From assembly GCA_021463465.1 (NCBI GenBank), contig JAJTYH010000002.1, positions 201,799-265,798 of the forward strand: DNA of 64,000 bases, given 5' to 3'. Origin of the DNA: a bacterium (GTDB lineage Bacteria; Patescibacteriota; Dojkabacteria; SC72). Under the pieces are notes generated by a model. It was not told the DNA's origin. It saw only the letters and a program-made list of their open reading frames with translations, and did no database searches. The translations under genes were made by a program, and so were the position numbers. Of the stretch, positions 7,107-52,106 are shown one piece after another. The stretch's first letter is position 1. Every line of letters begins with the position of its first letter.

Positions 7107-7739
7107 TTACTCAACCGAACAACCATCCAATTCTTCGCGGACCTCAGCCCATGCATCGACAAACGCCGTCACAAAAGCCTGAGGATCGCCTCCGTCAAAC
7201 TGAATAATTGTTGACATGGGGACATCCCAAGATGACATGAGACTCGTGTAGTGTGGAACGTAGGTTCCGACACACATGTAATGAGTCACCGACCTGGATT
7301 GAACCCATTGATGGTAGTCACGCATCGCAATAAATATCGATCTGTTTTCGGTGACACCGTCAACTGCACCCAGCTTCAGTTCCTCTTCGGCGAATTCACC
7401 CCACGAGACAACGAGTTGTCCGTTTCCCCACGGGATATACGCCTGGAACCAGGATCCGTGATCAATGGAATCAACGCCGTACGTGTCTGAGATGAAATCT
7501 TCAGTCCACGTATAAAATCTCGGCGTCGATGTATCTCCAACGACCGCATGTCCGTCTTCGTCAGTCCACTCAAGAACTTCTCCTGCCTTTTCGTGGCTGA
7601 CAACGTCAACCGCTGAACCTGACTCAGGCCCGGCGGCTTGGATTGAACCGTTAGGACGGAACGCCGTGAATACCAGAGCAATCGCTCCCACGAGTCCAAG
7701 TCCGAACAGAAATCCGAGTAACGTACTGTTTCGCTTCAT
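7107..7739 (-). CDS. Secreted/membrane-anchored hypothetical protein encoded by an anomalously GC-rich segment
   Basis: N-terminal hydrophobic signal/anchor (LLGFLFGLGLVGAIALVFTAF). Trp- and Asp-rich, no recognisable family. Local GC ~50% vs ~38% in flanks. Confidence 0.55.
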   Translation of the reverse strand: MKRNSTLLGFLFGLGLVGAIALVFTAFRPNGSIQAAGPESGSAVDVVSHEKAGEVLEWTDEDGHAVVGDTSTPRFYTWTEDFISDTYGVDSIDHGSWFQAYIPWGNGQLVVSWGEFAEEELKLGAVDGVTENRSIFIAMRDYHQWVQSRSVTHYMCVGTYVPHYTSLMSSWDVPMSTIIQFDGGDPQAFVTAFVDAWAEVREELDGCSVE

Positions 7740-7794
7740 ATGATCATCTCCTTGTTTGTAAGCGAATCTAACTTGATTTGTTTTTACCTATTTA

Positions 7795-7834
7795 CACCCA
7801 CTCAACTCTCTATAATTAAAGAGTTCAGTGGGTG
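7795..7834. promoter_or_regulatory. 15-bp inverted repeat with a TATAAT-like loop in a divergent intergenic region
   Basis: cacccactcaactct-ctataattaa-agagttcagtgggtg (one mismatch), between the start of the GC-rich gene (7739) and the next + strand gene. Confidence 0.4.
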
Positions 7835-8043
7835 AAACAGTTTTTCAAACCAATAAGTTCGCAAGGTGTAAAAATCATCTTCACTGATATATACCCGATA
7901 GTAGTAGATTAAAATCTTACTACCAAGTATTTTAAAAGATCAATCTAAATAAGAAATTCAGATCTGCACAATTATATAATAGGTGAGAAGGGGAAGTCAA
8001 TACTATAGGTTGTATGGCAGATGACAAATTGATATAATTGACG

Positions 8044-9201
8044 ATGGTTAATAATGCTAACACACAAGAAATTAATAGATTAAATGCGTTAAGGGAGCAA
8101 ATTACCTTTCCTATCGGAATGGATTCAGGAGAAATTTTGGATCAAGTACCTCAAGCAGAACAAATTTTAGCAGAGTTAGATGCTGGATTTGTTGAACTAC
8201 CTTCGCTTGATGAAGCCTTAAAGGCAAAACTTGGCGACAATGCGGAAAACCTTTTGAAAGCAGAAGGTTTTAGAGTGTTAGATATCAGAAACAATCAGTG
8301 CACATATCTATCTACCAAGAACCTCCCAAATGGCCGCAAAGAACTAAGGTCGCACTGGAAAAAACTCCTCAAAGAACTCCCAGAGGAAGCCTCTGTTAAG
8401 TCTATTGGTGATATTCTCCTAGTAACTCAGAGCGTTAAAGATGGAGTACTGACAAACAAACTTCATGTACTTGTAGATTTAAGAGAAAATGAATCAAGCA
8501 AAAAGGATGGGATAAGTCTATCAATACTTCAAGAGAAAGAAGACGGACATGTTTGGGATGTTAATAATTTGTACGGAATAAAGAGTAAAGTTTACTTGAA
8601 AAATAACGAACTGGTTTGGTTATTTATCAATCCATTTAAGTACTTTGGACGTATCGCCACAATTGATGGGAAAAATGTAATCCTAAACCGTTTATCACTT
8701 AATCCGGGGAGTCAAAGCTTCATTCCTGACATAGTCAAACATGAAAAGGTGCATATTAAACAGAGCTCAGAAGGAGTCCTTAAAATGGATGATGAGTTAA
8801 AGTTTGTTGCTTTTTCAATCCTTTTTCAAGATTTAGCCTCATTATCCTCACTTGCTGTTTTGATTCAACAAGGCTCACCTTGGCTATTTATGGCAAGTCT
8901 CACTGCAGCTTTAGCACTGTATATTCGTTCTAGACAAAAAGGAACTCCTTTGAACAAAGGACTGAGTAAACTACTAGCTGTTGAGGCAGAAGCATACTTT
9001 TCTTCTATTGCACACGAAAGAATTCTTAGAGATAAAGGGTATGTTGCAAGTAAACCTATACTACAACCCAAAGAGTATGCTAAACAACTTTCTTTATACC
9101 AACCTCTCACTTGGCTTTTGATCCAGAAAATTCATGAGCTTTTTACTAGGCGGAAGATAACAGCTGCTCCCTTACCGGCTACAGGATATTCTTTGAGTTA
9201 A
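8044..9201 (+). CDS. Hypothetical protein with an HExxH motif and C-terminal hydrophobic helices
   Basis: The ORF track starts on TTG at 8038; the first ATG is at 8044. VKHEKVHIKQ (HExxH) is followed by two predicted TM helices. No confident family. Confidence 0.4.
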   Translation: MVNNANTQEINRLNALREQITFPIGMDSGEILDQVPQAEQILAELDAGFVELPSLDEALKAKLGDNAENLLKAEGFRVLDIRNNQCTYLSTKNLPNGRKELRSHWKKLLKELPEEASVKSIGDILLVTQSVKDGVLTNKLHVLVDLRENESSKKDGISLSILQEKEDGHVWDVNNLYGIKSKVYLKNNELVWLFINPFKYFGRIATIDGKNVILNRLSLNPGSQSFIPDIVKHEKVHIKQSSEGVLKMDDELKFVAFSILFQDLASLSSLAVLIQQGSPWLFMASLTAALALYIRSRQKGTPLNKGLSKLLAVEAEAYFSSIAHERILRDKGYVASKPILQPKEYAKQLSLYQPLTWLLIQKIHELFTRRKITAAPLPATGYSLS

Positions 9202-9266
9202 AAGTCATTGACTCCCTACTAAAGAAATGCTTAAGTATATGAGTAAATAAATTTTGTCTCTGCCCA

Positions 9267-9614
9267 ATGGATATAGCGCAAATCAACGCTTTACTCGATT
9301 CACTAGAGGATTTGTTTAATAAAGCCGATGAAACTATTGTAAAACCTGAGAATAAGGTTTTTGTATTGGCCGGAATCTCAAACCTGAGAGATAATCCAAC
9401 TTCTGAAGAATTAGAAGGTTTCTTAGATGTGATAAAAGCTTACGCAACGCTCCCAAGCGAACAGCTTAACGCTATATCTGCCCAAGAATCACATGCAACT
9501 CAGCCACAAGTACCTTCACAAACAGCTGACGACAGTTTAGCGCAGGATCAAGCCAGACTTAAAGAATTACTTGAAAAGTTAAATAAATTAAATCAAAGCG
9601 CAGTTCAGGAGTAG
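9267..9614 (+). CDS. Small acidic hypothetical protein
   Basis: 115 aa, D/E/Q-rich, coiled-coil-like C-terminus. Immediately upstream of the giant ORF. Confidence 0.4.
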   Translation: MDIAQINALLDSLEDLFNKADETIVKPENKVFVLAGISNLRDNPTSEELEGFLDVIKAYATLPSEQLNAISAQESHATQPQVPSQTADDSLAQDQARLKELLEKLNKLNQSAVQE

Positions 9615-9691
9615 GCGAGAATACTCTTGTGCAATTTAGCAGAAAAACTTATATTAGTTGGTAATAACGAGTAAATTAAAAGTATTTTGTT

Positions 9692-10153
9692 ATGTTAAAA
9701 ATGCCAGATGTGTCAGTATTATCCCAAGATATTTTCCAGCTTTTAGGTATGGAAGCATTGGATGAAGTTGAGAAAGAGAAGTTTATGAACGATTTTTTGA
9801 ATTCAGTTTCAAAACAATTTTTCATTTCAAAGATTTTACCTTTCCTCAGTAATGAAGAAAAAGATAACTTATCTGACAAATACGAGAATTTGGATCAAAC
9901 AACTCTTCCAACTTTATTTGGTGAACTTTCAGAAAAGATTCCTAATATCGCTGATCTATATGTTGAATCCTTGAGAGAAGTCAAAGCGAAGCTTGTTACA
10001 GACACATACATCAACAAATCAGATATGCTTGAAGACTTAATTGCAAAAGAGAGTGACTCAGGTAAGGCTTCAGATTTGCGTGAGCAGTATGATTTATGTC
10101 AAAAAAACCTATCTTACGCACAAAACGGAAGATTCGATTTGATAACTAATTAA
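9692..10153 (+). CDS. Small acidic hypothetical protein
   Basis: 153 aa, acidic, helical. Stop lies 18 bp before the giant ORF's ATG. Confidence 0.4.
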   Translation: MLKMPDVSVLSQDIFQLLGMEALDEVEKEKFMNDFLNSVSKQFFISKILPFLSNEEKDNLSDKYENLDQTTLPTLFGELSEKIPNIADLYVESLREVKAKLVTDTYINKSDMLEDLIAKESDSGKASDLREQYDLCQKNLSYAQNGRFDLITN

Positions 10154-10171
10154 TATTTTTTATTGGAAAAC

Positions 10172-13100
10172 ATGTTAGCAGCACCTGGACGAGGAGAACT
10201 ACCAAGCTTTGAAAATCTAAATATTTCTCCAGAGAGCGCTGAAGAGTTAGGGAGAGATTTACGTAAAACTTTAGAGGCACTTGTAACTGGTTTCACTGGT
10301 GACTCTGGAGCAGCAAAAAAACTTCTCGAGAGTATGCTTGACCCGCAAAAAGAGCAAGCAGAGGGAAAAGTTCCAGAACGAACTAATGCTACACCTCTTT
10401 TGTCTGAGCAAAAGGGTGTGAAAAAGGTAGATAATGGACTTGAAATTGAAATTACTTCACCTGCGGTCAAGGAAGCTTTCATTGGCCCAAATGGGCGATC
10501 ATTGACAGAAGATATGTTCCAAGTCATCGCAGGAAGAGAAACGCAGGTAAGTGCCGCAGGTAAACCAGGAAATCTAAACTCGGGTCTTAGTGAAGTTAAA
10601 TCTGTCACTTTAGGCGGTGCCAATGTGAAGACAGGCTTTGATAGGTTAGAGCTTTCTAAAGGTGGTGATAAAGGATCTCCAAATGGTAACGAAGTTCTTA
10701 CTTTTGTAAAATTAGATCCAGAGGGGAAACCTGACCCAAAGAAGTCTGTCTCGATAAGAATTGAGAGAACTCAAAACGATACTAGTGGCATCCCTGATTC
10801 CAAAGTAATACTTTCCTTGGGCCTCCAAGAGACAAGTAACGCTATTACAGATAGTATTGGTAATATTCCAACGCGTTTATCACAAGTTGAATATTTACTG
10901 AAATTCAAACCGGATTTATCACTACAAGAAAAGGATGATTTGTCGGCCGAAGCCGCTTTGTTACGCGAACAGACAGTAACGGGTTTAAATGCAGAATCAA
11001 GACAAGCAAACCAGGCCTTGCTTTTTAAGGATTTGGCCTCAATTATTGCAATCGCTCGAGAAAGAGGACATTCAGTAACGTCTAGAGCTTCAATGGCTGA
11101 TTCAAATGAATCTGTTAGCTCAAGACAGTTTCAGGCTTTAGAAGTTTTCAATAGAATTATTGAGACACCTGGCTCTTTGATTAATCGATCAAAAAAAGCG
11201 GAGAAAAGAAGTGGAGACGTATCTGAAGATCAGAAGCTTTCCGACCTGAAGAGTTTTATAAATAAAGTTAGAGCCGATAGTAATGGAGAAGTTCCTGACC
11301 AAACGCCCAGGCAGGAAGTTCCAACTCCGTTAGGCGGTGAGTTGCAAACTAGCAATACTAAAAAGGAAGCTCCAAAGTCTATTGATGAGCTGAAGAAAGA
11401 TTTTGAAGGTGAACTCTCAGCAATTAAGGACTTGAGAAAGCGAAAAGAAGACTTAGAAGCAGAAATAAAAGCACTTAGTTCTGCTGATGCAGGAACCCTC
11501 TCCGTTGAAGAGAAAAAGAAACTTGAGTCTCTACAGAAGGACCTAGACGAGACAAAGCGCGGGTTAGAAATCTTAAAATCGCTTGGTGACATACAACTAT
11601 TTGACAGGAAAAAAAGTCTCAGAGATAAACTCAAAAACAGATTTCAGGATGAAATTGATTCTAGTACTGTCCTTACCCCTGAACAAATATCAAAACTCTC
11701 AGTTTCAGACTTACTTAGAATTCTTACCTTAAATGCCCAATACGCTAGCAAGAAAGATTCTACACCTGAAACAGCTGAAAAGGACAAACAGAATCTAGAC
11801 AAAATCAACGCTCTTATTGGTTTAGTCAATAGCTTCTCTGAAGCAAACCCTAATGCAGTAAAAGAGAGTAAAGGAAAAGATAAAAAGAAAGCAATCGACT
11901 TACTCACTGAGTGGTTAACTGCAAGAGAAACATCCCTAAGTACTGAAATTGACAAGCTCAACACAGCAGGAGCAACACTTGAAACAACTAACAAAGAGAG
12001 GGAAGAGAAGCTTGCAGCTTTGAAGAAGGAACTCGAGAAATTAGATGTTGATTTTGCAGCTACGCAATTAAAGGCAGCAAGTAGCTTAAGATCTCTTGGC
12101 GATCAAATCCCAACTGATGAATGGATCAAGTTAAGCAGCGCGCTGCATGAAGCTTCATTTGGTGATTTGCCAGAGAACCCCGAAGACACAAAAACAAAGA
12201 CTGAAGCCGCCGCCAATGCTTCTATCGCTTCAAATTGCCTTAGACATATTGATTTAGAGCTTGAGCAACGAATTGAGCCTGAAACTTCTAAGGTTAAGAA
12301 GTTCTTTAAACGAGCAGCTGAGGTACTTACATCTGTATTCGGTGGTATAGCCGCTCGAACAGCAGTTAAAGCTATAATAACTGGAACCCTAGGTTTAGCA
12401 CTTGGCGGTCCAGCAGGCTTATTGCTTGGTGGTGTTGCAGGGGCCTTGGCTGGAGGTGCTTCGAGTGCAATATTTAGTACTTGGATGCATTACAAGGTTT
12501 TCCACAACGACAAACTGCATGCGTTATATGCAGAGAATGCGAATCCTGGCAAATATGATTTCTTCAGATCTAGAATATTTGATAAGGCTAATGAGACTTA
12601 TGGTGTTAAAGCTCGAATCCAAAACATTGCAACCGTATACAATCAATTACTTTCGGGTCAACTAAAAGCCGATCAGTTAACACCTGATTTAGCTAAGACA
12701 GTACTGTCGGTTGTCAAAGACGCCAAGATGCTTAAAAACACCACCAATTTCATTGGTGTAAATAATCTAGGACTCGATGCGAATCTTTTCAAAAATGCTG
12801 CGGGTGAAACGGTTTTACCAGAAGATGCTTTACGAGATTTTGCTTTGAAATTTGATAATTTTGTCAACAACTCTATAAATGCAGGAAAATTAAACACTGA
12901 CGAAGTTTCAAAAGCACTTAGTGAAGCTGACAGTGAATCTAAGACAATGGTTAATGCAATGATAGCTTCAGCTTCTTGGACCAAATTCTTTAAAGGTGCT
13001 CTAATCGGAGGTGCTTCAGGCTTAATCGCACAAGGAATAGGAAATGCCCTCGAAGGAAAGGGCTTCTTAGGAACAGAAACTGGTGGGGTGACAAACTCAG

Positions 13101-15400
13101 CTGTAGGTTCAGTCACAGAATCACAAATGTCTGATGCAGATGTTTTGAAATTTAATGAAGAAGCTATGAAACGATTGGCTCCATACGGACAACAACAAGT
13201 AGCTCTCTTGCATCAAAACTACAGTAATGTTCCCGAAGCAGACTTACAAAAGATGTTTACCCAATTTGATGTAAATGGTAATGGAATACTTGAAGGCACT
13301 GAAGCAAATGCTCTAGTAGATTCACTTAATCAGTCAGGCTCAACTGGAGGTGTACCTACGTTAGTTGGTGCATGGGACGCACCTTATGATGGAAATATTT
13401 CAAAAGATGTACCACCTGAGTGGGTAGATACTTGGACCAAAGCAATCTACAATGTGGGTCGAGGACATGATTTCCATGGAGCTCAGTTTAGTATGCAGGG
13501 TGCTCCTGGAGGCGACTATTACGCTCTAGGACGGGCTTTAGATTACATGTCAAAGCATGTGCCAGCAGAGAGTATGAATACTCCCGAGGCTGGAATTTCG
13601 GTCTCCCATCTTTACGGCCACTTATTACTTGGAGGCCAACCAACCGATGCTCAATTAGCTGAATTCTTGACCAGGGTTGATGCCAAATATGAAGGTACAG
13701 ATTATGATATAAGCAAGATATTTACAGGTTCAGGTGAAGCAGTAACATCTTCTACAACCAATTCATCTGCATTGATTGCAGGAATGAACCAAATCACAAC
13801 GGCGGCCCAAAATGATGTAATGACTCTTTGGTCATCAATGGCTGAGAGCCCAACTATAACTGAGACAGTAAGCAACTCAGTGGCTAATTTTGTTGTTGAT
13901 ACCACAAAAGGTATAAATGAACTTGGCACTTCAGGTGCATTGGCAGGAATGGGTGTTTCTATGTGGCTAGCAAATATGTACACACCTGAGAATAGAGAGT
14001 ATGCCAAGGTGAAAGAGGCTGGCAAAGAAGGAGATAAGTCCGGTACACCTCCAGCAAATCAACCGGGAAATAGTTCAACTTCTGCAGGCTCAACAACACA
14101 AAAGGCAAATAACACACCTGGTAGTAACTCTGCAGACCAAACAGTTGAGACAGCAAACCGAAACAGTGGTCTTACAGATATCTCAGCCGCAAGTGCAAAA
14201 CAAGGAAGTGAATTGAAACCTTTTGGTAAAATTGAGTCTGCAGGAGTAGGCCTTTCTGCTGATAGTGAGAATACTAATCCAAATGTGGTAAATATTAATG
14301 CAGCAAACGGAAGATTTGTGGCATCAACCCCAGTATGGGTTAAGTCGCAAACAGGAAATGTCTCACAATTTGCCTACAGGCATCCAAGATTGGCTGAACT
14401 CTACAAAGAAGTTCTTTATATCGGCAATTTCATCAAACAATACGCCAAAACAACTGTTGGAATGAATAATGATCCTTTTGAGGCCCAAGTACTTGCAGAT
14501 ATTACAAAGTCAGTAGCTGCAAATGATAAGTATGCAGTAAGGAGACACGATGGAGGGGCCGTAAGCGTTGCGAGTTCACAGGTATATAACCTTGATCCCT
14601 ACAGAGCAAGAAAAAATGAACTCACGGCTGGACAAAACTTAAGAGAATTAAATGAAAGTGTTCGCCAGCCATTGGCCAAATTCGTCAAGAAAATGCTTGA
14701 GGTTGAATTTGGTGCAGGTGGATTAGGTCAGCAACACTTAGGTGATATTGATAGGGGAGTTCTTGATCTTTACATGAAGGATGGCGGCGAGAAATATATT
14801 AATAATGAGCAAGTACACGCATTCTTAGCTCTGCTTATGGTGTTGAATGATCCTGAAAATATGGAACCTAAATCCAAGTTCCTAAATCAAAAAGGTACAC
14901 AAGAATTCAATGGAATTGTAAATGTAATGATCTCTAGAGAGAGCGCATGGATGTCAATGTTATCACCAAAACTAAACGGCCAAAATTACCTAGGCTCAGC
15001 ATTCTTAGTGTCTGACGGAATTATTAGATCTGCACTTGAAATGAGCGGATATAATGTAAAGCCAGACCAAAGAGAAGCCCGACAGTACTTTACAAACGTG
15101 GATCAAATTGCGAGATCAGTAGCGTTGGTTAAAGGAGGCTCACCGTATAGTAATGCTCTGCAGTTAGTAAATCTTGCTAATCAAAACGGGGTAGAGTACT
15201 TCGCTCTAATGCGCGAAGCCACAGCAAAGGCACGAGCAGAAAAGAAAGGAAAGAAGAAAAAGCAACAGCAACAGCTAAATGATGCCGTAAGTGCAGTCCC
15301 AACAGTTACACCACAACCTGGCGAGGCCTTGCAAGATGAACCAGCACGTGAAGCAGTAGTAGTTGGAACGAACGAGCCAGCAGGTACAGATGAGATCTAA
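10172..15400 (+). CDS. Giant (1742-aa) multidomain protein with a coiled-coil region, a glycine-zipper membrane segment and a canonical EF-hand
   Basis: The track ORF begins on TTG at 10163; the first ATG is at 10172. Long heptad/KE-rich stretch (~aa 380-640). GxxxG-rich hydrophobic segment TGTLGLALGGPAGLLLGGVAGALAGGASSAIF. EF-hand loop DVNGNGILEGTE flanked by helices. Lys/Gln-rich C-terminal tail. Confidence 0.7.
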   Translation: MLAAPGRGELPSFENLNISPESAEELGRDLRKTLEALVTGFTGDSGAAKKLLESMLDPQKEQAEGKVPERTNATPLLSEQKGVKKVDNGLEIEITSPAVKEAFIGPNGRSLTEDMFQVIAGRETQVSAAGKPGNLNSGLSEVKSVTLGGANVKTGFDRLELSKGGDKGSPNGNEVLTFVKLDPEGKPDPKKSVSIRIERTQNDTSGIPDSKVILSLGLQETSNAITDSIGNIPTRLSQVEYLLKFKPDLSLQEKDDLSAEAALLREQTVTGLNAESRQANQALLFKDLASIIAIARERGHSVTSRASMADSNESVSSRQFQALEVFNRIIETPGSLINRSKKAEKRSGDVSEDQKLSDLKSFINKVRADSNGEVPDQTPRQEVPTPLGGELQTSNTKKEAPKSIDELKKDFEGELSAIKDLRKRKEDLEAEIKALSSADAGTLSVEEKKKLESLQKDLDETKRGLEILKSLGDIQLFDRKKSLRDKLKNRFQDEIDSSTVLTPEQISKLSVSDLLRILTLNAQYASKKDSTPETAEKDKQNLDKINALIGLVNSFSEANPNAVKESKGKDKKKAIDLLTEWLTARETSLSTEIDKLNTAGATLETTNKEREEKLAALKKELEKLDVDFAATQLKAASSLRSLGDQIPTDEWIKLSSALHEASFGDLPENPEDTKTKTEAAANASIASNCLRHIDLELEQRIEPETSKVKKFFKRAAEVLTSVFGGIAARTAVKAIITGTLGLALGGPAGLLLGGVAGALAGGASSAIFSTWMHYKVFHNDKLHALYAENANPGKYDFFRSRIFDKANETYGVKARIQNIATVYNQLLSGQLKADQLTPDLAKTVLSVVKDAKMLKNTTNFIGVNNLGLDANLFKNAAGETVLPEDALRDFALKFDNFVNNSINAGKLNTDEVSKALSEADSESKTMVNAMIASASWTKFFKGALIGGASGLIAQGIGNALEGKGFLGTETGGVTNSAVGSVTESQMSDADVLKFNEEAMKRLAPYGQQQVALLHQNYSNVPEADLQKMFTQFDVNGNGILEGTEANALVDSLNQSGSTGGVPTLVGAWDAPYDGNISKDVPPEWVDTWTKAIYNVGRGHDFHGAQFSMQGAPGGDYYALGRALDYMSKHVPAESMNTPEAGISVSHLYGHLLLGGQPTDAQLAEFLTRVDAKYEGTDYDISKIFTGSGEAVTSSTTNSSALIAGMNQITTAAQNDVMTLWSSMAESPTITETVSNSVANFVVDTTKGINELGTSGALAGMGVSMWLANMYTPENREYAKVKEAGKEGDKSGTPPANQPGNSSTSAGSTTQKANNTPGSNSADQTVETANRNSGLTDISAASAKQGSELKPFGKIESAGVGLSADSENTNPNVVNINAANGRFVASTPVWVKSQTGNVSQFAYRHPRLAELYKEVLYIGNFIKQYAKTTVGMNNDPFEAQVLADITKSVAANDKYAVRRHDGGAVSVASSQVYNLDPYRARKNELTAGQNLRELNESVRQPLAKFVKKMLEVEFGAGGLGQQHLGDIDRGVLDLYMKDGGEKYINNEQVHAFLALLMVLNDPENMEPKSKFLNQKGTQEFNGIVNVMISRESAWMSMLSPKLNGQNYLGSAFLVSDGIIRSALEMSGYNVKPDQREARQYFTNVDQIARSVALVKGGSPYSNALQLVNLANQNGVEYFALMREATAKARAEKKGKKKKQQQQLNDAVSAVPTVTPQPGEALQDEPAREAVVVGTNEPAGTDEI

Positions 15401-15431
15401 CTTTGGCTTTTTAAAAGTTTTAGGATCGAAA

Positions 15432-15457
15432 GGGGGCTAGCACATAGCTCCCTTTTT
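15432..15457 (+). terminator. Rho-independent terminator after the giant ORF
   Basis: gggggcta-gcaca-tagctccc (8-bp stem with one G-U pair) followed by TTTTT. Confidence 0.7.
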
Positions 15458-15461
15458 GATA

Positions 15462-15491
15462 TTGACAAAGTCTCCAGACCTATAGTATAAT
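15462..15491 (+). promoter_or_regulatory. Consensus sigma70-type promoter (TTGACA-18 bp-TATAAT)
   Basis: ttgaca at 15462-15467 and tataat at 15486-15491, with an 18-bp spacer. Drives a ~170-nt leader ahead of the GC-rich ORF at 15666. Confidence 0.6.
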
Positions 15492-15565
15492 ACACTCGTA
15501 ATATCTTAGAATATTACAATCTGCTCTTTTAAAATGCAGTACGATAATAAGATTTCTGTGAGAGC

Positions 15566-15618
15566 CAACTAACCAATATTGTTATTAATCACCTATTGAT
15601 ACCACTATTGGTTAGTTG
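15566..15618 (+). promoter_or_regulatory. 13-bp perfect inverted repeat in the 5' leader (operator or RNA stem)
   Basis: caactaaccaata ...27 nt... tattggttagttg, between the promoter and the SD (aaaggagg, 15651-15658). Confidence 0.45.
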
Positions 15619-15665
15619 TAATATCCAAAATCTTCAAGTGCCAAACACCACAAAGGAGGTCGTCA

Positions 15666-16084
15666 TGGCAGGTTTCTTTAGTTCGGTTTGGAATACGCTC
15701 ACGGGACGCGGTAAGGAGTCGCAATCAATGCAATTCATGCGTGAAACCGGAGCGGGTCAAGGGGACATTCGGGTGGCACGAGCAGCTCTCATTGACGCGG
15801 TCAACGCGGCGTGCATTGAGCTTGATATCGTTCTCAAACCCGGTGGAACCCAGGTAATCGAGAAGGCAATCCTTGAAGCTGTCGACCCAGGGTCGATCCA
15901 AAATCTTCAGCTTCTCCAGAGGATGCGCTCCATGGGAGTCTTAAACACTGGCATGATGATGCAATCGCCAACTCCAGCGATGGACCCAACAATGATTGCG
16001 CAAATCGTCAACCAGGTGATGGACGCTCGTGAAGCCGCCAAGCTCACCCAAACAGACCGGCCCCAAAAATCAGACGAGGTGTAA
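15666..16084 (+). CDS. Small hypothetical protein in a GC-rich (~55%) self-contained cassette
   Basis: Strong SD AAAGGAGG 7 nt upstream of the ATG at 15666; the track ORF start at 15596 lies inside the leader. Own promoter and terminator. No recognisable domain. Confidence 0.6.
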
Positions 16085-16112
16085 CAACCGAGTCAGCGTA
16101 CTGCATTCCCGT

Positions 16113-16141
16113 GGGGAAGCTCTCTTTTAGAAAGCTTCCCC
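16113..16141 (+). terminator. Rho-independent terminator
   Basis: ggggaagct-ctcttttagaa-agcttcccc, a perfect 9-bp stem, followed by a gttttgtgttt T-rich run. Confidence 0.65.
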
Positions 16142-16198
16142 CGGGTGTACGTTTTGTGTTTACATATATCAATATGTTTAGTATTTTTATATGTAAGT

Positions 16199-17425
16199 AT
16201 GAAATCACCTACTCACGAGAGTACAAACAAAAACCCTCGCCATATTGAGAAAATAGGGTTAAAAGCTGAAGCAACAGAAAGTTCACCAAACATCGAGACG
16301 GGACTAAGACTTTTAGGATCTGGTTTTGAAGGCGATACTTATGAATACAGGGCGAGAGATGGAAGTATTAAAGCCATAAAGGTTTTCAGACCTCGTGGGA
16401 AGGTATGGGATGACAACTATCATCAAGAGTTTGATGCTGCAGACCCAAACGACCCGAGAGAATTATCCAAAACAATATTTCGTGCAGCACATACAGCGAG
16501 ATGGGCAGATCGAATACAACATCCAGCACATCTGATTGAGGAGATTAACAAGCTCGATGACGAACTAATGGCGACAGGATCGAGTGCGTATAATATTCGA
16601 ACTCTACAAGAATCCTTTGCTAGGGTAGGTGATTTGAACACTAATGGCTTTAGAAATTATTTAACCCAAAGAGCATTAGCCCTGGGACAAAGGATTTTTG
16701 TTCCTGAAATAAATATTGACCCAAATTTCAAAGGTGGATTAGGCTCAGCGATTAATCGTTTAGTCGAATGGACAAGTACTAATTATCCTCAATTACAGCT
16801 GCCTAAAAGAATATTTCCCAGATTCATACAATTTGGAAAGTTTCCTGAAGACTATCCAAATCTTAAAGTCGCTGGAAGAGAGTATTTAGTTATGGAGAAA
16901 GTGCACTTGATTCTTGGTGACTATATAGAAAAGACTCAATCCAAAATACTTTCAATGGGCAGTATTTTATCTGATAGCCCTGAAATAGCTCAAGTTCAAC
17001 CCCTCCCAATCTCGATTCAACAGATTGCCGGAACTAGAACGAATCTAGAAATTTTAGCTTCTCTAGGATTAACCTTTGGTGATTTAAAATTGGGTAACAT
17101 AGCCTTTGACGCAGACAACACTCCAATTCTCATTGACCCCACTGCGGTGCTCAAAACTGGAAGTATCCAAGATATTGCTACTATGGACTACCTCCCTCCA
17201 CATGTTCAAGCACAAGTAAGAATGATGCAACCAATCAAGGGAGATCCTCAAAACGATATTTATGCTTTAAATCGAATACTTTCTATTATACAGCAGGAAT
17301 GGATGCAGGCTGTAATGCAAGGACTAAGAAAGAATACGCGTAATATAATGCATGATGAGAGGGTTGGGACAGAAACAGCCTCAACAATGCTTCAAAACTC
17401 AAGAAGAAATCAAAATACATTATAA
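16199..17425 (+). CDS. Protein-kinase-like (PKL) superfamily protein, atypical
   Basis: Track start is GTG at 16145; the first ATG is at 16199. LGSGFEGDTYEY (GxGxxG loop) with AIK lysine 14 aa later. FGDLKLGNIAF resembles the HRDLKxxN/HGDxxxGN catalytic loop; IDP may be the DFG-equivalent. The spacing between the Lys and the catalytic loop is unusually long. Confidence 0.45.
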   Translation: MKSPTHESTNKNPRHIEKIGLKAEATESSPNIETGLRLLGSGFEGDTYEYRARDGSIKAIKVFRPRGKVWDDNYHQEFDAADPNDPRELSKTIFRAAHTARWADRIQHPAHLIEEINKLDDELMATGSSAYNIRTLQESFARVGDLNTNGFRNYLTQRALALGQRIFVPEINIDPNFKGGLGSAINRLVEWTSTNYPQLQLPKRIFPRFIQFGKFPEDYPNLKVAGREYLVMEKVHLILGDYIEKTQSKILSMGSILSDSPEIAQVQPLPISIQQIAGTRTNLEILASLGLTFGDLKLGNIAFDADNTPILIDPTAVLKTGSIQDIATMDYLPPHVQAQVRMMQPIKGDPQNDIYALNRILSIIQQEWMQAVMQGLRKNTRNIMHDERVGTETASTMLQNSRRNQNTL

Positions 17426-17429
17426 AAAG

Positions 17430-19346
17430 ATGAGAAACTTTATCAAACCAACAATCCAAAGTTTATTGGAAAATATCTTCGAGAAATCTCAGCTTAAACA
17501 AATCCGTGAATTTGCTGAAAAAGAGCCTCTACTCAATCTAAAAACTCAAAAAACCGTATTTCCGGGTTCAAAGGAGACAGGAAAAGAAAATGTTGTACTG
17601 CCAGAAGTTGAGGTAACAACAAATCTTCCATTAAGTCATGACAAATTGCTACTAAACTCCACAGGGCAAAATGAGTGGCGAAGAGCTATTGGCTTTAGTC
17701 CATTGAATACACCTCAAACCAGAGAACGCATTGATAAGGGAGCAATGGTTATGGTTGTGAAATCAAAGGATGTCACAGCAATTGGAGTTAACCGACCCTC
17801 CACGCTAACATATCATCTTCCGCAAGATGCAAGTGCTATTTCTATTATGGAAGTTGACGGTGAATCAGTAATTGGTCTCCAGGTGGCAGATGGTACGACA
17901 TTCTTGGAGCTTGGAGATACAGAAATTCAAGCATGTAAGAGGCCGATTACAGGTGGAGATAAAATTACAAATCGCACTTCAAAAGTTCATTGCGATAGTG
18001 ATAGATGGGCGCACTTTGTTGCAAGAACTTCTGCGACAATAGGCTTACAAGGAGCTCAAAAGGGTTCAGGAACAATCAAAGGGATCTCGGAGAGTGACAG
18101 AGATAAGCTCGTGGAAGAAAATGGGGTTGGATCTTCAACCGCGCAATCATTATCAATTAAACGTACTGAAAAAGGTTATCATGCTCAAATAGTTGGGACA
18201 GGGGCAGAAAGAGATTTTGGCCAAATCTTCGTTGGGACTGACAAAAGAGCTGACCAGCTTGCACTTCTACCAAATATGGAAAATATTAGCCCCATGAATT
18301 CTAGCTCAAGGGTGCTTGGACTGGTTGGGAGGGAGCGGCTAATCCAACCAACTTTGGATGCCGATTTCGAAGCGGGCACTGCTTTTATTCTGACCTCTGA
18401 CGGTTTTTCACTAAAAAGTCCTCAAATAGGAGAGCTTTTAATCGATTATGCAAAAAACAAAACATCGGAACAGATTATACAAATTCTTCAAGACGCAAAA
18501 ATGCTTGATCTATTATTTGCGCACCCAGATGGAAAGAGACCCGCAAAAGACGATGGAACTCTTTGGTTAGTACTCCTTAACGACCAGGAAAAAGCTCAGT
18601 CTGAAGTTAATCAAAACTTACTCTTAGATGATTTACTTCATAAGGCCAAAGCTCTGTCAAACCTTTTTCCCAAAGCAGCAGAACAGATAAATAGAAGATT
18701 AGAAGAAATAAGGGCTCTTACTGATGAGATACTTCAATGGGTGGAATCAAGAACAAGTGACAGTGTAAGTGTAAATGATTTAAAAGATATTCAAAAAGCA
18801 ACTGAACAGGCCTTAGCAGCTGAAGCAGAACAAAAGGAACTAGAAAAAGAACTGGAATTAGTAAATGAAAGCAAAGTTCTTTTACAACATCATACCCTTA
18901 GTAATCAATATTACTCTGCGGCAATGCTAGATACAGTCGTATCGTTACGCAATGTTATAGGAACTGGAGAAGTTACGAGTAAAATTCTAGCGGAGTGCAT
19001 AGCTACTATTTCATCCGCCTTAAATGGTAACAAGAATATTAAAATTACCAATCAAAAACTCGTAAAGGTTGTTTTCGACGAGTTACTCGAAAAGAGACTA
19101 GCAATAACTAAAGAAGAGAAGTTTTTTGAAACTTTGACCAAATGGATTCAAGATCCTTCACAAGAAAATACTAAGGCTCTGAAATCGCAAATAAGTATTT
19201 CTCTTCCTCATTTAAATTCACTCACTCGCATAATACATAGCGAAGAAGATCAATTTAAAACTAAAGAGTACTTGTATTACTTAGAATATTCAAAAAAATT
19301 AGTACCTACTTGGAAAAACTTAGTAAATACCAAAATTAACGACTAA
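17430..19346 (+). CDS. PP2C-like phosphatase-domain protein with a C-terminal coiled-coil
   Basis: Track ORF begins at 17352, overlapping the upstream gene; an in-frame ATG at 17430 follows that gene's stop. AFILTSDGFS (LASDG-like motif) and DDGTLWLVLL (DD.TVIVV-like terminal motif). A long helical/KE-rich tail follows. Confidence 0.4.
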   Translation: MRNFIKPTIQSLLENIFEKSQLKQIREFAEKEPLLNLKTQKTVFPGSKETGKENVVLPEVEVTTNLPLSHDKLLLNSTGQNEWRRAIGFSPLNTPQTRERIDKGAMVMVVKSKDVTAIGVNRPSTLTYHLPQDASAISIMEVDGESVIGLQVADGTTFLELGDTEIQACKRPITGGDKITNRTSKVHCDSDRWAHFVARTSATIGLQGAQKGSGTIKGISESDRDKLVEENGVGSSTAQSLSIKRTEKGYHAQIVGTGAERDFGQIFVGTDKRADQLALLPNMENISPMNSSSRVLGLVGRERLIQPTLDADFEAGTAFILTSDGFSLKSPQIGELLIDYAKNKTSEQIIQILQDAKMLDLLFAHPDGKRPAKDDGTLWLVLLNDQEKAQSEVNQNLLLDDLLHKAKALSNLFPKAAEQINRRLEEIRALTDEILQWVESRTSDSVSVNDLKDIQKATEQALAAEAEQKELEKELELVNESKVLLQHHTLSNQYYSAAMLDTVVSLRNVIGTGEVTSKILAECIATISSALNGNKNIKITNQKLVKVVFDELLEKRLAITKEEKFFETLTKWIQDPSQENTKALKSQISISLPHLNSLTRIIHSEEDQFKTKEYLYYLEYSKKLVPTWKNLVNTKIND

Positions 19347-19406
19347 TTTACTTGTCCATACCACAAGAGTATAATCCCTCAATAATTACAAAAAACAATT
19401 AAAGTT

Positions 19407-21011
19407 ATGGCACCAAGACCCATAACTGCCCCACTAGAATTAGTTTCCCAGTTAGAGCAATTCAAAGAACACACACGTAATGGTGAAGATTTAACTGCAG
19501 AAGGTTTGACTACAACAATAAAAGCTTTTTCAAAAGCTATAAAGGTTGGATTTGAGGGTGCATCTGAATTCCTTTCAGAAGAAGCTGAACTTTCAAGAGA
19601 TGAGTTTTTCGCGGAGTATGTGCACTGGAGCGACAATGTTTTAGCCCTGGCCTTAAAACAAAAAGGAATAGACAGAGTTCTGGTTTCCACTCCAACGGGA
19701 ATTCAGGGCGCCGGTAAAGGAACATACGGTGACACTCTTCAAGTACTTGCACAGGAACTTGTCGAAGAAATGGCGTCTGGACAACCTAAAAAATACAAAC
19801 AACTGGTTACTCAACCTGACGCAATCACAGAGAAATGTGTTGCCCGAGCGAGATCACAAGAAGTAAAAACGGGTACAGGAGGAATTTTTAACCATAAAAA
19901 CACAAGATCTGAGATAACTACAGACGAAGAACGCGAATATTTCGATCTCTTCAATGATATGAAAAATGCAATGGGTGCTGCAAAGGGCGTTTTTGTAGAG
20001 AACAATATTGTAGCCATTGCATTAAACCTTTATATGGCATTAAAAGTAATGCAGAATGAGGAAGGTATAAGTTCATTCAATATCGACCTCTATCCAAGAT
20101 CTCAGCGTCAGATTGAACTTTTAGAACAGACAACTGGAACACTCCAAGACAACGGGATAGTCCTTGAACATAGCACTATTGATTTTAAACTCCTCAATGA
20201 AGAACAGGTCCAACAGTTACTAAGATACAAAAACAGCGCTCTTGCAATTCTCCCAAAGGTACAAGAAGGTTTTACAACTGTAATTAAAAGGGTCGAAGAA
20301 GTATTTAGAAGCCACTCAGATGATTACACCTTTGATGAACTACGAAAAGATCTGACCGGTATTATAATGAGTGCTTCAGAAGGCGAAACTGATGCAATGA
20401 GAGCAGCTGAGTTGATGCTAAATGAGTGTTTAAGTGCAGCAAATAGAACAGAAAAACGTGGCAAAGAGTCCAAACGACCAGACGATCGTCCAATACCACT
20501 CCTAAAACGATTAAAAGATTACTTTGCCAAGTCATTTGCCATACCATTCCTATTCGAAAACCCTATGATGTTTGCCACAGACTACAAACCCGAAGAGGTT
20601 GCAAGAAAAGTCTTTTGTAAGTATTTCAGTATTGAACATTCTGCACCAGAACTTCAAAATGGCGGTAAGTACTATGATCTTTACAGAAGATACCAATACT
20701 TAGCCGCATGCAAAGTGTATGGAGAGTTTAAAGGTGACTTAGAGCTCAGACAAATAAAAAGGGAAAAGCCTGATTCAACTGAGTTGATTTACTGGGGAGA
20801 AGCTGGGAATGTAATATTTTATTCGTTCATTCAAAAACCTGGTGGTAACTCAGTTATGTACACAATAGGACATAAAGGAACTACTTTTACAGAAGATATC
20901 CCAGGATTAGCTAATACACTTAAGCTAGAAATTCCACAAACCCAAACAATTGCTGAGTTTATTGAGAATAATCCTCCACTTTGGTATCAACTAGAAGGTA
21001 TCTTCATTTAA
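19407..21011 (+). CDS. P-loop kinase-like protein (GxxGxGKGT Walker A, adenylate/nucleotide-kinase-like)
   Basis: STPTGIQGAGKGTYGDTL P-loop; the rest is unrecognised. Convergent 8-bp overlap with the integrase. Confidence 0.45.
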   Translation: MAPRPITAPLELVSQLEQFKEHTRNGEDLTAEGLTTTIKAFSKAIKVGFEGASEFLSEEAELSRDEFFAEYVHWSDNVLALALKQKGIDRVLVSTPTGIQGAGKGTYGDTLQVLAQELVEEMASGQPKKYKQLVTQPDAITEKCVARARSQEVKTGTGGIFNHKNTRSEITTDEEREYFDLFNDMKNAMGAAKGVFVENNIVAIALNLYMALKVMQNEEGISSFNIDLYPRSQRQIELLEQTTGTLQDNGIVLEHSTIDFKLLNEEQVQQLLRYKNSALAILPKVQEGFTTVIKRVEEVFRSHSDDYTFDELRKDLTGIIMSASEGETDAMRAAELMLNECLSAANRTEKRGKESKRPDDRPIPLLKRLKDYFAKSFAIPFLFENPMMFATDYKPEEVARKVFCKYFSIEHSAPELQNGGKYYDLYRRYQYLAACKVYGEFKGDLELRQIKREKPDSTELIYWGEAGNVIFYSFIQKPGGNSVMYTIGHKGTTFTEDIPGLANTLKLEIPQTQTIAEFIENNPPLWYQLEGIFI

Positions 21012-22281
21012 GCGGATGCTTATCTTTGTGAGTATCTGAAGCAAATTTGTCAGATGCATGCACATACCTTGTTGTTGTATTAAGGCTTTCATGACCTAAC
21101 AGGACTTGAATTGCAGCTGGATTAGCACCATTTTCAGCCAAATATGTAGCAAAGCCATGCCTCAGACTGTGAGCTGAAGTGGGAACTAAAATACCCAGTC
21201 TACGCCTATACTGCGCGATTTTCTCTTGAAAGTAGTTTGAAGATATTCGCATATTTTCTTTCTTTTTTCCTCTTCCAGAGAATGGAATAAACAGAGCAGG
21301 GGAGTCAAACTTCGTAAGGAAGTTATTTTTCCTAAAGTCTTCTACTAGAGCTATAAAACGGTAGGAGTGATTTCCATCAGAAACAGCGGCCATCAGCTCA
21401 GAGCCTTTCAATGTTTCACGCTCCGTGTCATGAATATGCTTTAAGCGCACTTCTAAATACTTATCTAACCAACTCATGGCCCTTGGTGTCATGTATACGA
21501 AACGTTGCTTTTTCCCTTTACCTAAAATAAAAAGCTTACCATCCAAATTTACTTGATCCAAGTTAAGGCCAATCAGTTCTGAAATACGCATACCTGTTGA
21601 AAAAAGTAGCTCTAGCATTGCACGATTGCGCACACTTACTTCATAATCCTTTTCAAATTCGCTCGGTGCTTCAATTAAGCTAATCAATTCATCCAGCTCA
21701 GCAACCTGAGACTTTTTCTTCTCAGCCTTAATTAGTTTAATTGCATCCGGCGCAATTGGAATTTCTAAATCTCTATCAATTCTAAATTTTAAATACGAAC
21801 GAATCGCAGATAACATTCGATTCACACTTCGAGCATCCAAACCCGTAGTCGACCTCGCGGAAGCGTTTTGGGGTTTGTTTGACATTCCCAGACTGCCAAA
21901 GACTTTTTTATATACATTATCGAGAAAACCAGGCTGATCCATAGGTGTTGTTAGAGCACCTGATACCTCTTCATCGCTTTTAGGGCCATCGTAGCCCGTC
22001 GCTGGACTTTGTACCGTACTATCAAGCTTTCTAAGACTTTCAGCTCTGAATTTATCCAAATCTTTCAAATGTTCGCCACTTCGAAGATAACCTTTATAAA
22101 TAGTAATCTCTTCTTTGGAGAGTTTAAGGAATTGGACATCTTTGAAATGTAAAAAGACTGCAAAGATAGATAGGTCCCTGGCATAGTTGAAGACTGTCTG
22201 CATACTGTAGTTATTATTCTGAAGATCTAAAAGGAATTTGTCCTGTTCTGGTAGCTTAGGGATTGTTATGTTTTTGGACAT
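21004..22281 (-). CDS. Tyrosine site-specific recombinase / phage-type integrase
   Basis: ARSVNRMLSAIRSYL (Arg I box) and HSLRHGFATYLAENGANPAAIQVLLGHESLNTTTRYVH (box II, HxxR...Y catalytic tyrosine). N-terminal SAM-like core-binding region. Confidence 0.9.
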   Translation of the reverse strand: MSKNITIPKLPEQDKFLLDLQNNNYSMQTVFNYARDLSIFAVFLHFKDVQFLKLSKEEITIYKGYLRSGEHLKDLDKFRAESLRKLDSTVQSPATGYDGPKSDEEVSGALTTPMDQPGFLDNVYKKVFGSLGMSNKPQNASARSTTGLDARSVNRMLSAIRSYLKFRIDRDLEIPIAPDAIKLIKAEKKKSQVAELDELISLIEAPSEFEKDYEVSVRNRAMLELLFSTGMRISELIGLNLDQVNLDGKLFILGKGKKQRFVYMTPRAMSWLDKYLEVRLKHIHDTERETLKGSELMAAVSDGNHSYRFIALVEDFRKNNFLTKFDSPALFIPFSGRGKKKENMRISSNYFQEKIAQYRRRLGILVPTSAHSLRHGFATYLAENGANPAAIQVLLGHESLNTTTRYVHASDKFASDTHKDKHPLK

Positions 22282-26502: not shown

Positions 26503-27336
26503 TCACTTCCAAAGCTCTCTATCGTAAAGAGCTAGAAACTCCCGATGTCTAGAACCTTTTGGCTGGTCACTATGAATCAATTGAACCCCGCTAGCGAGAT
26601 AAAGATAAGGAAGCATCTGTGAGTATTCCAAGTCAAAACGGGAAATATAAAGCCTATCCAGCCTTACTAACCTCTTACCCACTTCATACAAATTTCTGTA
26701 GAAAGTTGGTACATGACCCGGAGCATCCGAGACCACAGCCGTAACAGCCGTCATAGCTATATCTAAAAGATGATTACCCGAAAAGGCATCACTCCAATCT
26801 AAAATATAGATTCCGTTATCTTGATTAACAATTAAGTTTCCGTGATGGAAGTCCCCATGACACAAACAAACCTTATGAGGACGGCTTAGAGTCTCTAACA
26901 TTCTATCTTTCTCAACATCACTTAACTCCTTTGAAGCTTTAATCTCCGGACTGATTTTATCCCACTGTGAAAGAATATCTACTTCAATATTTGCAAGTGT
27001 TGAATGTGCCTCTGAGACTTTACGAACCACGTCAAAGTATGTCCAGGGTTTTCTCATCAATCCATTCATCAAAGACTCTCCAGTAACGAATTCAAAGATA
27101 ATGCCACGCTTACCTTCTGTCTGAATAAGTTCTAATGGTGTCGCGACGTTCAAGTCCCCTACCTTCGAGATTTTCAGAGTTTTCTCAAACTCTTCTGTTA
27201 TATAACTTTCGGGAACATCTGCGTTATACAGTTTGACTGACTCATTCTTACTGAAACGAAAAACAGTGGACCTACGACCGTGATCAATAATTGGAAGTTT
27301 ATCCAGTAGCTCCTTCGAATCTAAATACTTACTCAC
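26503..27336 (-). CDS. Phosphotransferase (APH/choline-kinase-like) family protein
   Basis: LCHGDFHHGNLIV (HGDxxxxN brace/catalytic loop) and ILDWSDA (metal-binding Asp). Confidence 0.7.
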   Translation of the reverse strand: MSKYLDSKELLDKLPIIDHGRRSTVFRFSKNESVKLYNADVPESYITEEFEKTLKISKVGDLNVATPLELIQTEGKRGIIFEFVTGESLMNGLMRKPWTYFDVVRKVSEAHSTLANIEVDILSQWDKISPEIKASKELSDVEKDRMLETLSRPHKVCLCHGDFHHGNLIVNQDNGIYILDWSDAFSGNHLLDIAMTAVTAVVSDAPGHVPTFYRNLYEVGKRLVRLDRLYISRFDLEYSQMLPYLYLASGVQLIHSDQPKGSRHREFLALYDRELWK

Positions 27337-52091: not shown

Positions 52092-52106
52092 TGTGGTACA
52101 AATTAT

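Follow-up and report, generated by a model that had tools for sequence, protein, structure and literature searches.

Membrane-anchored coiled-coil proteins with a Ca2+-binding loop are already known as a kind. EF-hands normally work as pairs, and in bacteria those with a full set of ligands occur more typically in proteins that are extracytoplasmic or exposed to Ca2+; consecutive GxxxG motifs, (GxxxG)n, drive tight homo-oligomeric helix packing, and several pore-forming toxins employ glycine zippers. Giant uncharacterised proteins occur commonly in Candidate Phyla Radiation (CPR) genomes. The protein analysed here (the giant protein) has 1742 residues and is encoded on the forward strand of a 64-kb stretch of bacterial DNA, the whole of which is called the window below. 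It is of the kind just named; judged by its sequence and fold it represents a new family, and the EF-hand is its sole part that belongs to a known one. We tentatively favour its interpretation as a scaffold protein resident in the membrane of a Dojkabacteria-like epibiont, polytopic and oligomerising, with an outward-facing Ca2+-binding loop and with the product of the gene directly upstream (o153) as its partner.

The giant gene is a single open reading frame (ORF) of 1742 codons at 10172-15400 (+), with its ATG at 10172 and its stop codon ending at 15400, and starts 18 nt after the stop codon of the upstream ORF. It is the largest ORF of the window, as stated in a preliminary description of the locus, and every sequence element listed there was located. 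The same gene is IT417_02855 of GCA_020853275.1, annotated as 'hypothetical protein IT417_02855 [bacterium]'. Its parts are as follows.

10172-11341, +, fast-diverging N-terminal region, residues 1-390
11351-12271, +, charged, helix-rich region with heptad-like segments (from heptad score and composition), residues ~394-700
12290-12487, +, basic amphipathic helix and glycine-zipper helical hairpin, the most conserved part, residues 707-772
12503-12985, +, helical domain after the hairpin, with HYKVFH...EN and the invariant T-N of LTNFVGL, residues 778-938
12995-13051, +, second, weaker hydrophobic segment GALIGGASGLIAQGIGNAL, the putative third transmembrane segment (TM3), residues 942-960
13232-13333, +, EF-hand helix-loop-helix with the loop DVNGNGILEGTE at 13268-13303, residues 1021-1054
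13349-13711, +, conserved domain after the EF-hand, with a W...HG motif, residues ~1060-1180
13922-13978, +, third hydrophobic segment LGTSGALAGMGVSMWLANM, the putative fourth transmembrane segment (TM4), residues 1251-1269
14009-14296, +, low-complexity linker with an S-, T-, N-, P- and G-rich composition, residues ~1280-1375
14303-15211, +, C-terminal helical domain with NPF, N.E.V..F..L..LNDP.N and N[IV]DQ..R, residues 1378-1680
15227-15397, +, K/Q-rich, then acidic C-terminal tail, residues 1686-1742

An exhaustive phmmer search with residues 720-1742 against 1.84 billion representative proteins revealed 12 other proteins, namely ten relatives (nine of 1200-2350 residues and one 453-residue fragment) and two proteins that match the EF-hand only. 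The giant protein and eight of the relatives share a collinear core of ~550 residues (alignments A1 and A6). The core begins with a basic amphipathic helix (W/F-K-K-F-x-R-x-x-A-E-V-L-T) and a Gly/Ala-rich hydrophobic hairpin of 53-60 residues, continues with [HR]-Y-x-x-F...E-N, a helical domain containing LTNFVGL and the hydrophobic K-G-A-x-I-G-G-x-x-G, and ends with the EF-hand site, the W...HG domain and a final hydrophobic segment. Columns Y76, F79, E90, T160 and N161 of the helical domain after the hairpin, and W390 and G412 of the W...HG domain, are invariant in A6. Family membership was defined by this core together with an o153-family gene directly upstream, and the giant gene has both. 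A C-terminal helical domain of ~300 residues, with the motifs NPF, N-x-E-M-V-D-S-F-x-x-L-M-x-x-L-N-D-P-x-N and N-I-D-Q-x-x-R, is common to P0003, P0004, P0005, P0006, P0007 and the ortholog from Candidatus Dojkabacteria bacterium UBA2022 (locus L005). The N-terminal ~350-390 residues are conserved with this ortholog only (E 5e-24) and are undetectable in the other members; family members have 700-1200 helical, charged residues on the N-terminal side of the hairpin, with weak coiled-coil-type Pfam matches (ZapB, APG6_N).

The termini are swapped between members. P0008 (L008) and P0012 (L011) have no NDP-type C-terminal domain and carry repeated beta-rich modules of ~60 residues at the C-terminus, and also at their N-termini; P0007 has its hairpin near the N-terminus, the NDP domain in mid-protein and an extra C-terminal region of ~450 residues. 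The swapped terminal parts of these three proteins, of P0009 (L012) and of P0011 (L013) gave no Pfam match, and an FHA-like C-terminus of P0008 and P0012, suggested by eye, found no Pfam support.

Searches by other routes returned little else. A word-indexed search of 5.8 billion proteins with the whole giant protein retrieved the protein itself alone, and the same type of search with the N-terminal 350 residues and with the core alignment retrieved nothing; the word index was swamped by low-complexity, Gly-rich words, and the family surfaced in the exhaustive HMMER search only. When 185,579 species-representative genomes were pattern-scanned with the C-terminal alignment, a single locus emerged, that of UBA2022, and a scan of a metagenome collection with a 4-sequence alignment likewise found one. 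No relative was detected in a pattern scan of 2.9 million viral contigs, or by tblastn against 50,697 phage genomes and 72,556 plasmids. NCBIfam, PHROGs and PADLOC contained no match to the giant protein, Pfam gave a sub-threshold EF-hand only, and phmmer against all PDB sequences gave nothing significant. Domain searches, which the preliminary description had named as a check, thus pointed to no known housekeeping protein, with no ATPase head, SMC-like or division domain in Pfam or NCBIfam. No description of the family or of its partner gene was found in the searched libraries and literature, and a survey of type IV secretion systems (T4SS) in Patescibacteria makes no mention of the giant family (PMC12102498). 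All family loci that could be placed lie in Patescibacteria-type neighbourhoods; judging from these matches, the family is probably restricted to Dojkabacteria-like CPR bacteria and appears undescribed so far.

Conservation is distributed very unevenly along the protein. The UBA2022 ortholog has 1755 residues and is 37% identical over 1721 residues, and RuvB of the same genome pair (window versus UBA2022) is 66-70% identical. Identity to the ortholog by region is as follows.

Residues 1-650, N-terminal region and coiled coil, 16-40%
Residues 701-800, amphipathic helix, hairpin and HYKVFH, 86%
Residues 801-950, helical domain after the hairpin, 52-58%
Residues 1101-1150, W...HG domain, 70%
Residues 1251-1300, last hydrophobic segment, 60%
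Residues 1301-1350, low-complexity linker, 18%
Residues 1351-1650, rest of the linker and C-terminal domain, 24-48%

The hairpin therefore appears to be under stronger constraint than RuvB, which suggests specific helix-helix contacts, through oligomerisation or with a fixed partner, and not a passive anchor. The Lys/Gln-rich C-terminus noted in the preliminary description, KKGKKKKQQQQ at ~1690-1701, is present in the giant protein but unconserved in the ortholog. The long charged heptad region of that description stood in part: the segments are heptad-like and charged, with the stretches 394-441 and 565-645 above the 99.5th percentile of shuffles in a crude heptad score and with charged, Gly/Pro-poor windows at residues ~337-714, but the coiled coil is segmented and does not form one long coil.

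A Kyte-Doolittle scan revealed just one strongly hydrophobic stretch, residues 718-770, which contains TGTLGLALGGPAGLLLGGVAGALAGGASSAIF. The N-terminus has no hydrophobic segment, so the protein carries no signal peptide, in agreement with the preliminary description. The hydrophobic hairpin, 55 residues long, harbours the expected GxxxG-repeat helix, with five consecutive GxxxG motifs (G741-745-749-753-757-761), that is, six glycines at exact four-residue spacing, a GxxxG count reached by 1.6% of shuffles in any window of the same size; Gly makes up 21% of the stretch and 8% of the whole protein. The hairpin could be aligned in every core-bearing family member. TM3 bears the conserved KGAxIGGxxG, with G244 and G248 invariant in A6, and a hydrophobic segment equivalent to TM4 was found in every family member. 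Analysis of the net charge of 15-residue flanks in 7-8 members showed +2 to +5 before the hairpin in all but one, 0 to +4 after the hairpin, +1 to +5 before TM3 and -1 to 0 after TM3; right after the last hydrophobic segment, P0004 has the run KKAKKGKKGKKG and the giant protein an R/K-rich sequence. By the positive-inside rule, these flank charges would fit a path of four segments with the N- and C-terminal regions inside and the EF-hand loop outside.

The 12-residue loop DVNGNGILEGTE at residues 1033-1044 (window 13268-13303), described earlier as a textbook EF-hand loop, fits D1, N3, N5, G6, L8 and E12 of the EF-hand. The full PROSITE pattern PS00018 is unmatched, with position 13, where the pattern asks for a hydrophobic residue and the loop has Ala, as the sole failure, and Pfam EF-hand_1 remains below its gathering score (14 bits versus 25.4; E 0.038). 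The two EF-hand-only proteins of the exhaustive search, which are eukaryote-like multi-EF-hand proteins, match residues ~1012-1084 only (E 4e-7 and 9.5e-4), and the best matches of the family profile A6 among PDB sequences are calmodulins (E 9e-5 to 4e-4), exactly on the EF-hand segment. Five of ten members (the giant protein, its UBA2022 ortholog, P0005, P0008 and P0012) contain exactly one strict loop each, which lies at the homologous site; P0002 has a near-canonical loop close by, P0003 a variant of 13 residues that EF-hand_5 matches below threshold, and P0004, P0009 and P0011 keep Gly6, hydrophobic-8 and Glu12 with ligands 1 and 3 lost. The phmmer matches, the calmodulin matches of the profile and the conserved loop position argue that the site is more than chance; we regard it as a genuine EF-hand-type site, which in the giant protein probably binds Ca2+. 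The conserved loop position across the family also counters the objection, raised in advance by the preliminary description, that this might be a conserved housekeeping protein with an unconserved EF-hand loop.

AlphaFold2 (AF2) models add limited detail. The sole confidently modelled part is residues 778-938, which are helical with a predicted local distance difference test score (pLDDT) of 80-92. The EF-hand region was modelled as helix-loop-helix (pLDDT 59-77), the hairpin as two helices broken at GGPAG with low pLDDT, the W...HG domain with low confidence, and the C-terminal domain as all-helical (pLDDT 55; core, 52). Fold searches gave no meaningful match, neither for residues 778-938 nor for the C-terminal domain, and profiles of the C-terminal domain, of the o153 family and of the HExxH protein encoded further upstream (o385) gave nothing against PDB sequences.

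The genes and sites closest to the giant gene are as follows.

8044-9201, +, o385, a 385-residue membrane protein with HExxH, two hydrophobic segments and E..AY; orthologs in L005, L006 and L007
9267-9614, +, o115, a small helical ORF, kept in the close relative L005 only (40% identity)
9692-10153, +, o153, a soluble helical protein of ~155 residues, directly preceding the giant gene
15462-15491, +, sigma-70-type consensus TTGACA-18 nt-TATAAT within a 264-nt gap (12/12 positions, a pattern match only)
21004-22281, -, tyrosine recombinase ('phage integrase' family), unusually long (425-538 residues)

In each of the eight loci with upstream sequence, the gene directly before the giant gene is an o153 homolog of ~160-170 residues (alignment A8), which points to an obligatory partner; the only database match of o153 is a weak one to phrog_34670, of unknown function (E 1.5e-4). 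In o385, H233, E234, H237 and E314 are invariant in a four-sequence alignment (A7), as is E..AY. It has no Pfam or PDB match; its layout may resemble that of M48/M56 membrane zinc peptidases, and the protein is a putative Zn-metalloprotease-like partner. No family match was found for o115. Judging by the promoter consensus, the downstream ORFs may be transcribed as a unit of their own.

Comparison of gene order revealed the same theme around the family. In L005 the order is a GH26-like gene, a GT2 gene, the HExxH membrane protein (inverted there), ORFs of 113 and 159 residues and the giant gene, followed by ORFs of 152, 418 and 641 residues, the tyrosine recombinase, a transmembrane protein, ruvB, ruvA, ruvC and yebC. 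This theme recurs at the loci of seven further family members, with conserved order in L005-L009, L011 and L012, and with envelope glycosyltransferases, GH26 or VanY further upstream in several. Every locus that is long enough, except one, has the recombinase after the giant gene, and ruvBAC-yebC beyond it wherever the contig reaches; the downstream genes of L013 alone differ. This synteny spans genomes whose RuvB proteins are just 58-70% identical. The recombinase itself keeps 50-67% identity over eight divergent loci, with ruvBAC next to it as far as the contigs extend, and by this behaviour it is most likely a chromosomal Xer-type enzyme, not an island integrase. The giant gene differs by 1-2 nt from four public assemblies (GCA_020853275.1 and the Logan assemblies of three runs); at window position 14612 (codon 1481) it has A where all four have C (K1481Q), and the surrounding 25 kb is 99.98% identical. 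It is single-copy in each contig examined, with a GC content of 0.40-0.43, inside the window's range. The preliminary description had placed the gene in a putative island and expected it to be strain-variable. The conserved chromosomal gene order, the unremarkable GC content and the Xer-like recombinase speak against the former, and the near-identity among assemblies and the full-length ortholog in UBA2022 against the latter; because of this ortholog, gene order and near-identity, the giant gene is taken to be a vertically inherited, core-like gene of the chromosome, not part of a mobile island.

Beyond the nearest relative, L005, the ORFs of 139, 408, 636 and 534 residues that follow the giant gene show no conservation. 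The 408-residue ORF (16199-17425, +) has by eye the protein-kinase-like motifs GSGFEGDTY, AIKVF and GDLKLGN and a possible DFG-equivalent, IDP; Pfam and PDB phmmer gave no significant match, the best being a ribulosamine kinase (E 0.21) on the catalytic-loop stretch. A link of the giant protein to Ser/Thr signalling, with this ORF as kinase and with the 636-residue ORF and the C-terminus of P0007 as PP2C-like, was unsupported by BLASTP, Pfam and PDB phmmer. The 534-residue ORF (19407-21011, +) carries an adenylate-kinase-like P-loop, GIQGAGKGT, and has no Pfam match; the syntenic L005 locus lacks it, which makes it the one clearly variable gene of the block. Elsewhere, the window encodes Patescibacteria-typical genes: a sortase, LytR_C, VanY, a VirD4-like ATPase, and AMP-phosphorylase-like and IF-2B-like genes. 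The latter two are adjacent at 50580-53051 (-), as an AMP-phosphorylase-like gene (Glycos_transf_3 and PYNP_C) and a ribose-1,5-bisphosphate-isomerase-like gene of the IF-2B family; the AMP-phosphorylase/IF-2B nucleoside pathway has been reported for Dojkabacteria (PMC5113843), and no RuBisCO gene turned up among the scanned ORFs of the window.

Taken as a membrane scaffold, the giant protein would be organised as follows. The N-terminal ~700 residues, comprising the variable domain and the coiled-coil segments, would be cytoplasmic; the basic amphipathic helix and the glycine-zipper hairpin would enter or cross the membrane and come back, and the helical domain of ~160 residues after the hairpin would stay in the cytoplasm. 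TM3 would then lead the chain outward, so that a loop of ~290 residues with the EF-hand and the W...HG domain faces the cell envelope, and TM4 would bring it back inside, where the low-complexity linker and the helical C-terminal domain would reside. The glycine zipper would provide tight helix-helix packing, probably for homo-oligomerisation or for docking to a conserved membrane partner, and the outward EF-hand would bind Ca2+, either stabilising the loop domain or reporting on the envelope or host-contact environment. The giant protein would work with the always-adjacent helical protein of ~155 residues, and probably also with the upstream HExxH membrane protein, as an envelope-associated scaffold of an epibiotic ultra-small bacterium. 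The family, its synteny, its pattern of conservation and the EF-hand signature are observed; topology, oligomerisation, Ca2+ binding and role are proposals. A bolder version, which we consider improbable, is that the o153-giant pair and the HExxH protein form an as yet unrecognised envelope machine found in Dojkabacteria-like CPR bacteria alone, a Ca2+-sensing transmembrane scaffold or channel oligomerised by its glycine zipper that links surface or host-contact events to a giant coiled-coil platform in the cytoplasm; if true, this machine would be a new type of component of a bacterial transmembrane signalling or attachment organelle.

Several observations weigh against the scaffold interpretation. 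TM3 and TM4 are moderately hydrophobic (mean Kyte-Doolittle 0.7-1.7), with polar residues in TM3, and for this reason the four-segment topology and the extracytoplasmic EF-hand could be wrong. About four of ten family members have degenerate Ca2+ ligands, so Ca2+ binding cannot be essential family-wide, and the giant protein has a single canonical EF-hand, any partner of which is at best a pseudo-EF-hand. Both AF2 models have low confidence overall (pLDDT 52-55), no homology links the giant family to any function, and shared descent, not functional linkage, may account for the gene order that related genomes have in common.

In another explanation the hairpin alone is embedded, the weaker hydrophobic segments are amphipathic helices, all soluble parts including the EF-hand are cytoplasmic, and the protein is a membrane tether or cytoskeletal scaffold at the cytoplasmic face, whose long coiled coil organises division, shape or membrane curvature as in hairpin-plus-coiled-coil proteins. 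The weak hydrophobicity of TM3 and TM4 would suit this explanation, as would the basic residues at both ends of the hairpin, which put both ends on the same side, the 700-1200 helical, charged residues before the hairpin in family members with their weak ZapB and APG6_N matches, and the location of the gene near ruvABC and the Xer-like recombinase. However, the charge asymmetry of TM3 is consistent in seven members and an equivalent of TM4 is present in all, full-ligand EF-hands are more typical of Ca2+-exposed proteins, and Pfam and NCBIfam revealed no division or cytoskeletal domain. We therefore regard a purely cytoplasmic-face tether as unlikely.

The preliminary description had pointed to an exported pore-forming or membrane-inserting toxin, leaving the cell by a non-classical route such as a nearby VirD4-like ATPase. 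In such a reading the hairpin would form a pore in a host cell membrane, where the EF-hand would sense high Ca2+. The ATPase is indeed present 12 kb away (27329-29893, -), with TrwB_AAD_bind and DUF87 domains (DUF8128 in relatives); its position is syntenic in both L006 and L011, with 70% identity in L006. The 64-kb window contains no other T4SS gene. In Patescibacteria most VirD4-like genes lie at a distance from virB4, and that of S. epibionticum was not essential for epibiotic growth (PMC12102498). This unlinked arrangement and dispensability count against the toxin, although CPR bacteria are epibionts that need host manipulation (PMC10633639, PMC12102498), and the extended glycine zipper, the lack of a signal peptide and the fast-evolving N-terminal regions, which would suit host interaction, would all agree with it. 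Against these stand the absence of toxin-family homology in Pfam, NCBIfam, PADLOC and PDB and of a meaningful fold match, and a gene that is present once in each contig examined, keeps its synteny, is inherited vertically and has no neighbour resembling an immunity gene. The conserved positive-inside pattern at the four hydrophobic segments agrees with insertion during translation in the producing cell, and a hairpin more conserved than RuvB would be unusual for an arms-race effector. An exported toxin is thus quite doubtful.

A mobile-element remnant, that is, a phage tape-measure-like or conjugative-element protein that arrived with the neighbouring integrase, is highly improbable: the recombinase at 21004-22281, the ORFs from 7107 to 21011 without Pfam match, the weak match of o153 to a PHROG of unknown function, and a length, coiled coil and Gly-rich hydrophobic segments typical of tape-measure proteins are outweighed by the lack of a PHROG match to the giant protein itself, the absence of relatives from the viral, phage and plasmid collections searched, the absence of capsid, terminase, tail and relaxase genes nearby, housekeeping genes on the flanks, the Xer-like conservation of the recombinase beside ruvBAC, a GC content that does not deviate, and a chromosomal position that is constant across genomes with divergent RuvB. 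Three other candidates were rejected. No FtsK/SpoIIIE, WXG100 or YukC domain was found for a reading as a type VII secretion system (T7SS), PADLOC ruled out a defence system, and a chlamydial origin, suggested by a DUF1978 match (E 0.005) that is below threshold and belongs to a neighbouring ORF, not to the giant gene, does not fit the CPR-type gene content or the ortholog from Dojkabacteria.

A large part of bacterial diversity belongs to the Patescibacteria, whose envelope building and host attachment are mostly unknown. A small family whose partner gene is conserved, whose domains are mapped and whose Ca2+ site can be tested would offer a handle on the lineage-specific envelope biology of Dojkabacteria. 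The locus is also instructive in that a giant orphan gene beside an 'integrase' and a VirD4-like ATPase mimics a secreted island effector, a misreading that comparative synteny corrects. Practical value is limited for now, as no family member is cultivated and the role is a proposed one.

Among known systems, EF-hand proteins such as calmodulin and S100 (PF00036/PF13499) share with the giant protein the 12-residue loop pattern, the helix flanks and the calmodulin profile match (E 9e-5). The giant protein differs from them in that it has one canonical loop inside a 1742-residue membrane protein, remains below the Pfam gathering score, fails PROSITE position 13 and belongs to a family with ~40% ligand-degenerate members. 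Glycine-zipper helices, as in VacA, MscL and the membrane-depolarising toxins of type VI secretion systems and T7SS, have in common with it the consecutive (GxxxG)n on a transmembrane helix; no homology was found, and the giant gene lies in a conserved chromosomal module, not in a toxin-immunity or secretion locus. Coiled-coil proteins anchored by a hairpin, such as chlamydial Inc proteins, likewise have a bilobed hydrophobic segment of ~50-60 residues with a short turn, GGPAG in the giant protein, coiled coils, and both ends of the hairpin on the same side. In contrast to the Inc proteins, the giant protein is encoded by a CPR bacterium, with no type III secretion gene found in the window, is 5-10 times larger, has extra hydrophobic segments and conserved domains, and shows no sequence similarity. 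Eukaryotic membrane proteins of the STIM1 and LETM1 type combine, by analogy, an EF-hand on one side of a membrane, a membrane anchor and long coiled coils; the polybasic tail of the giant protein was counted toward this likeness, yet it is unconserved in the ortholog. No sequence or fold relationship to STIM1 or LETM1 was detected and the order of the elements differs, and the likeness is one of functional speculation, not of homology.

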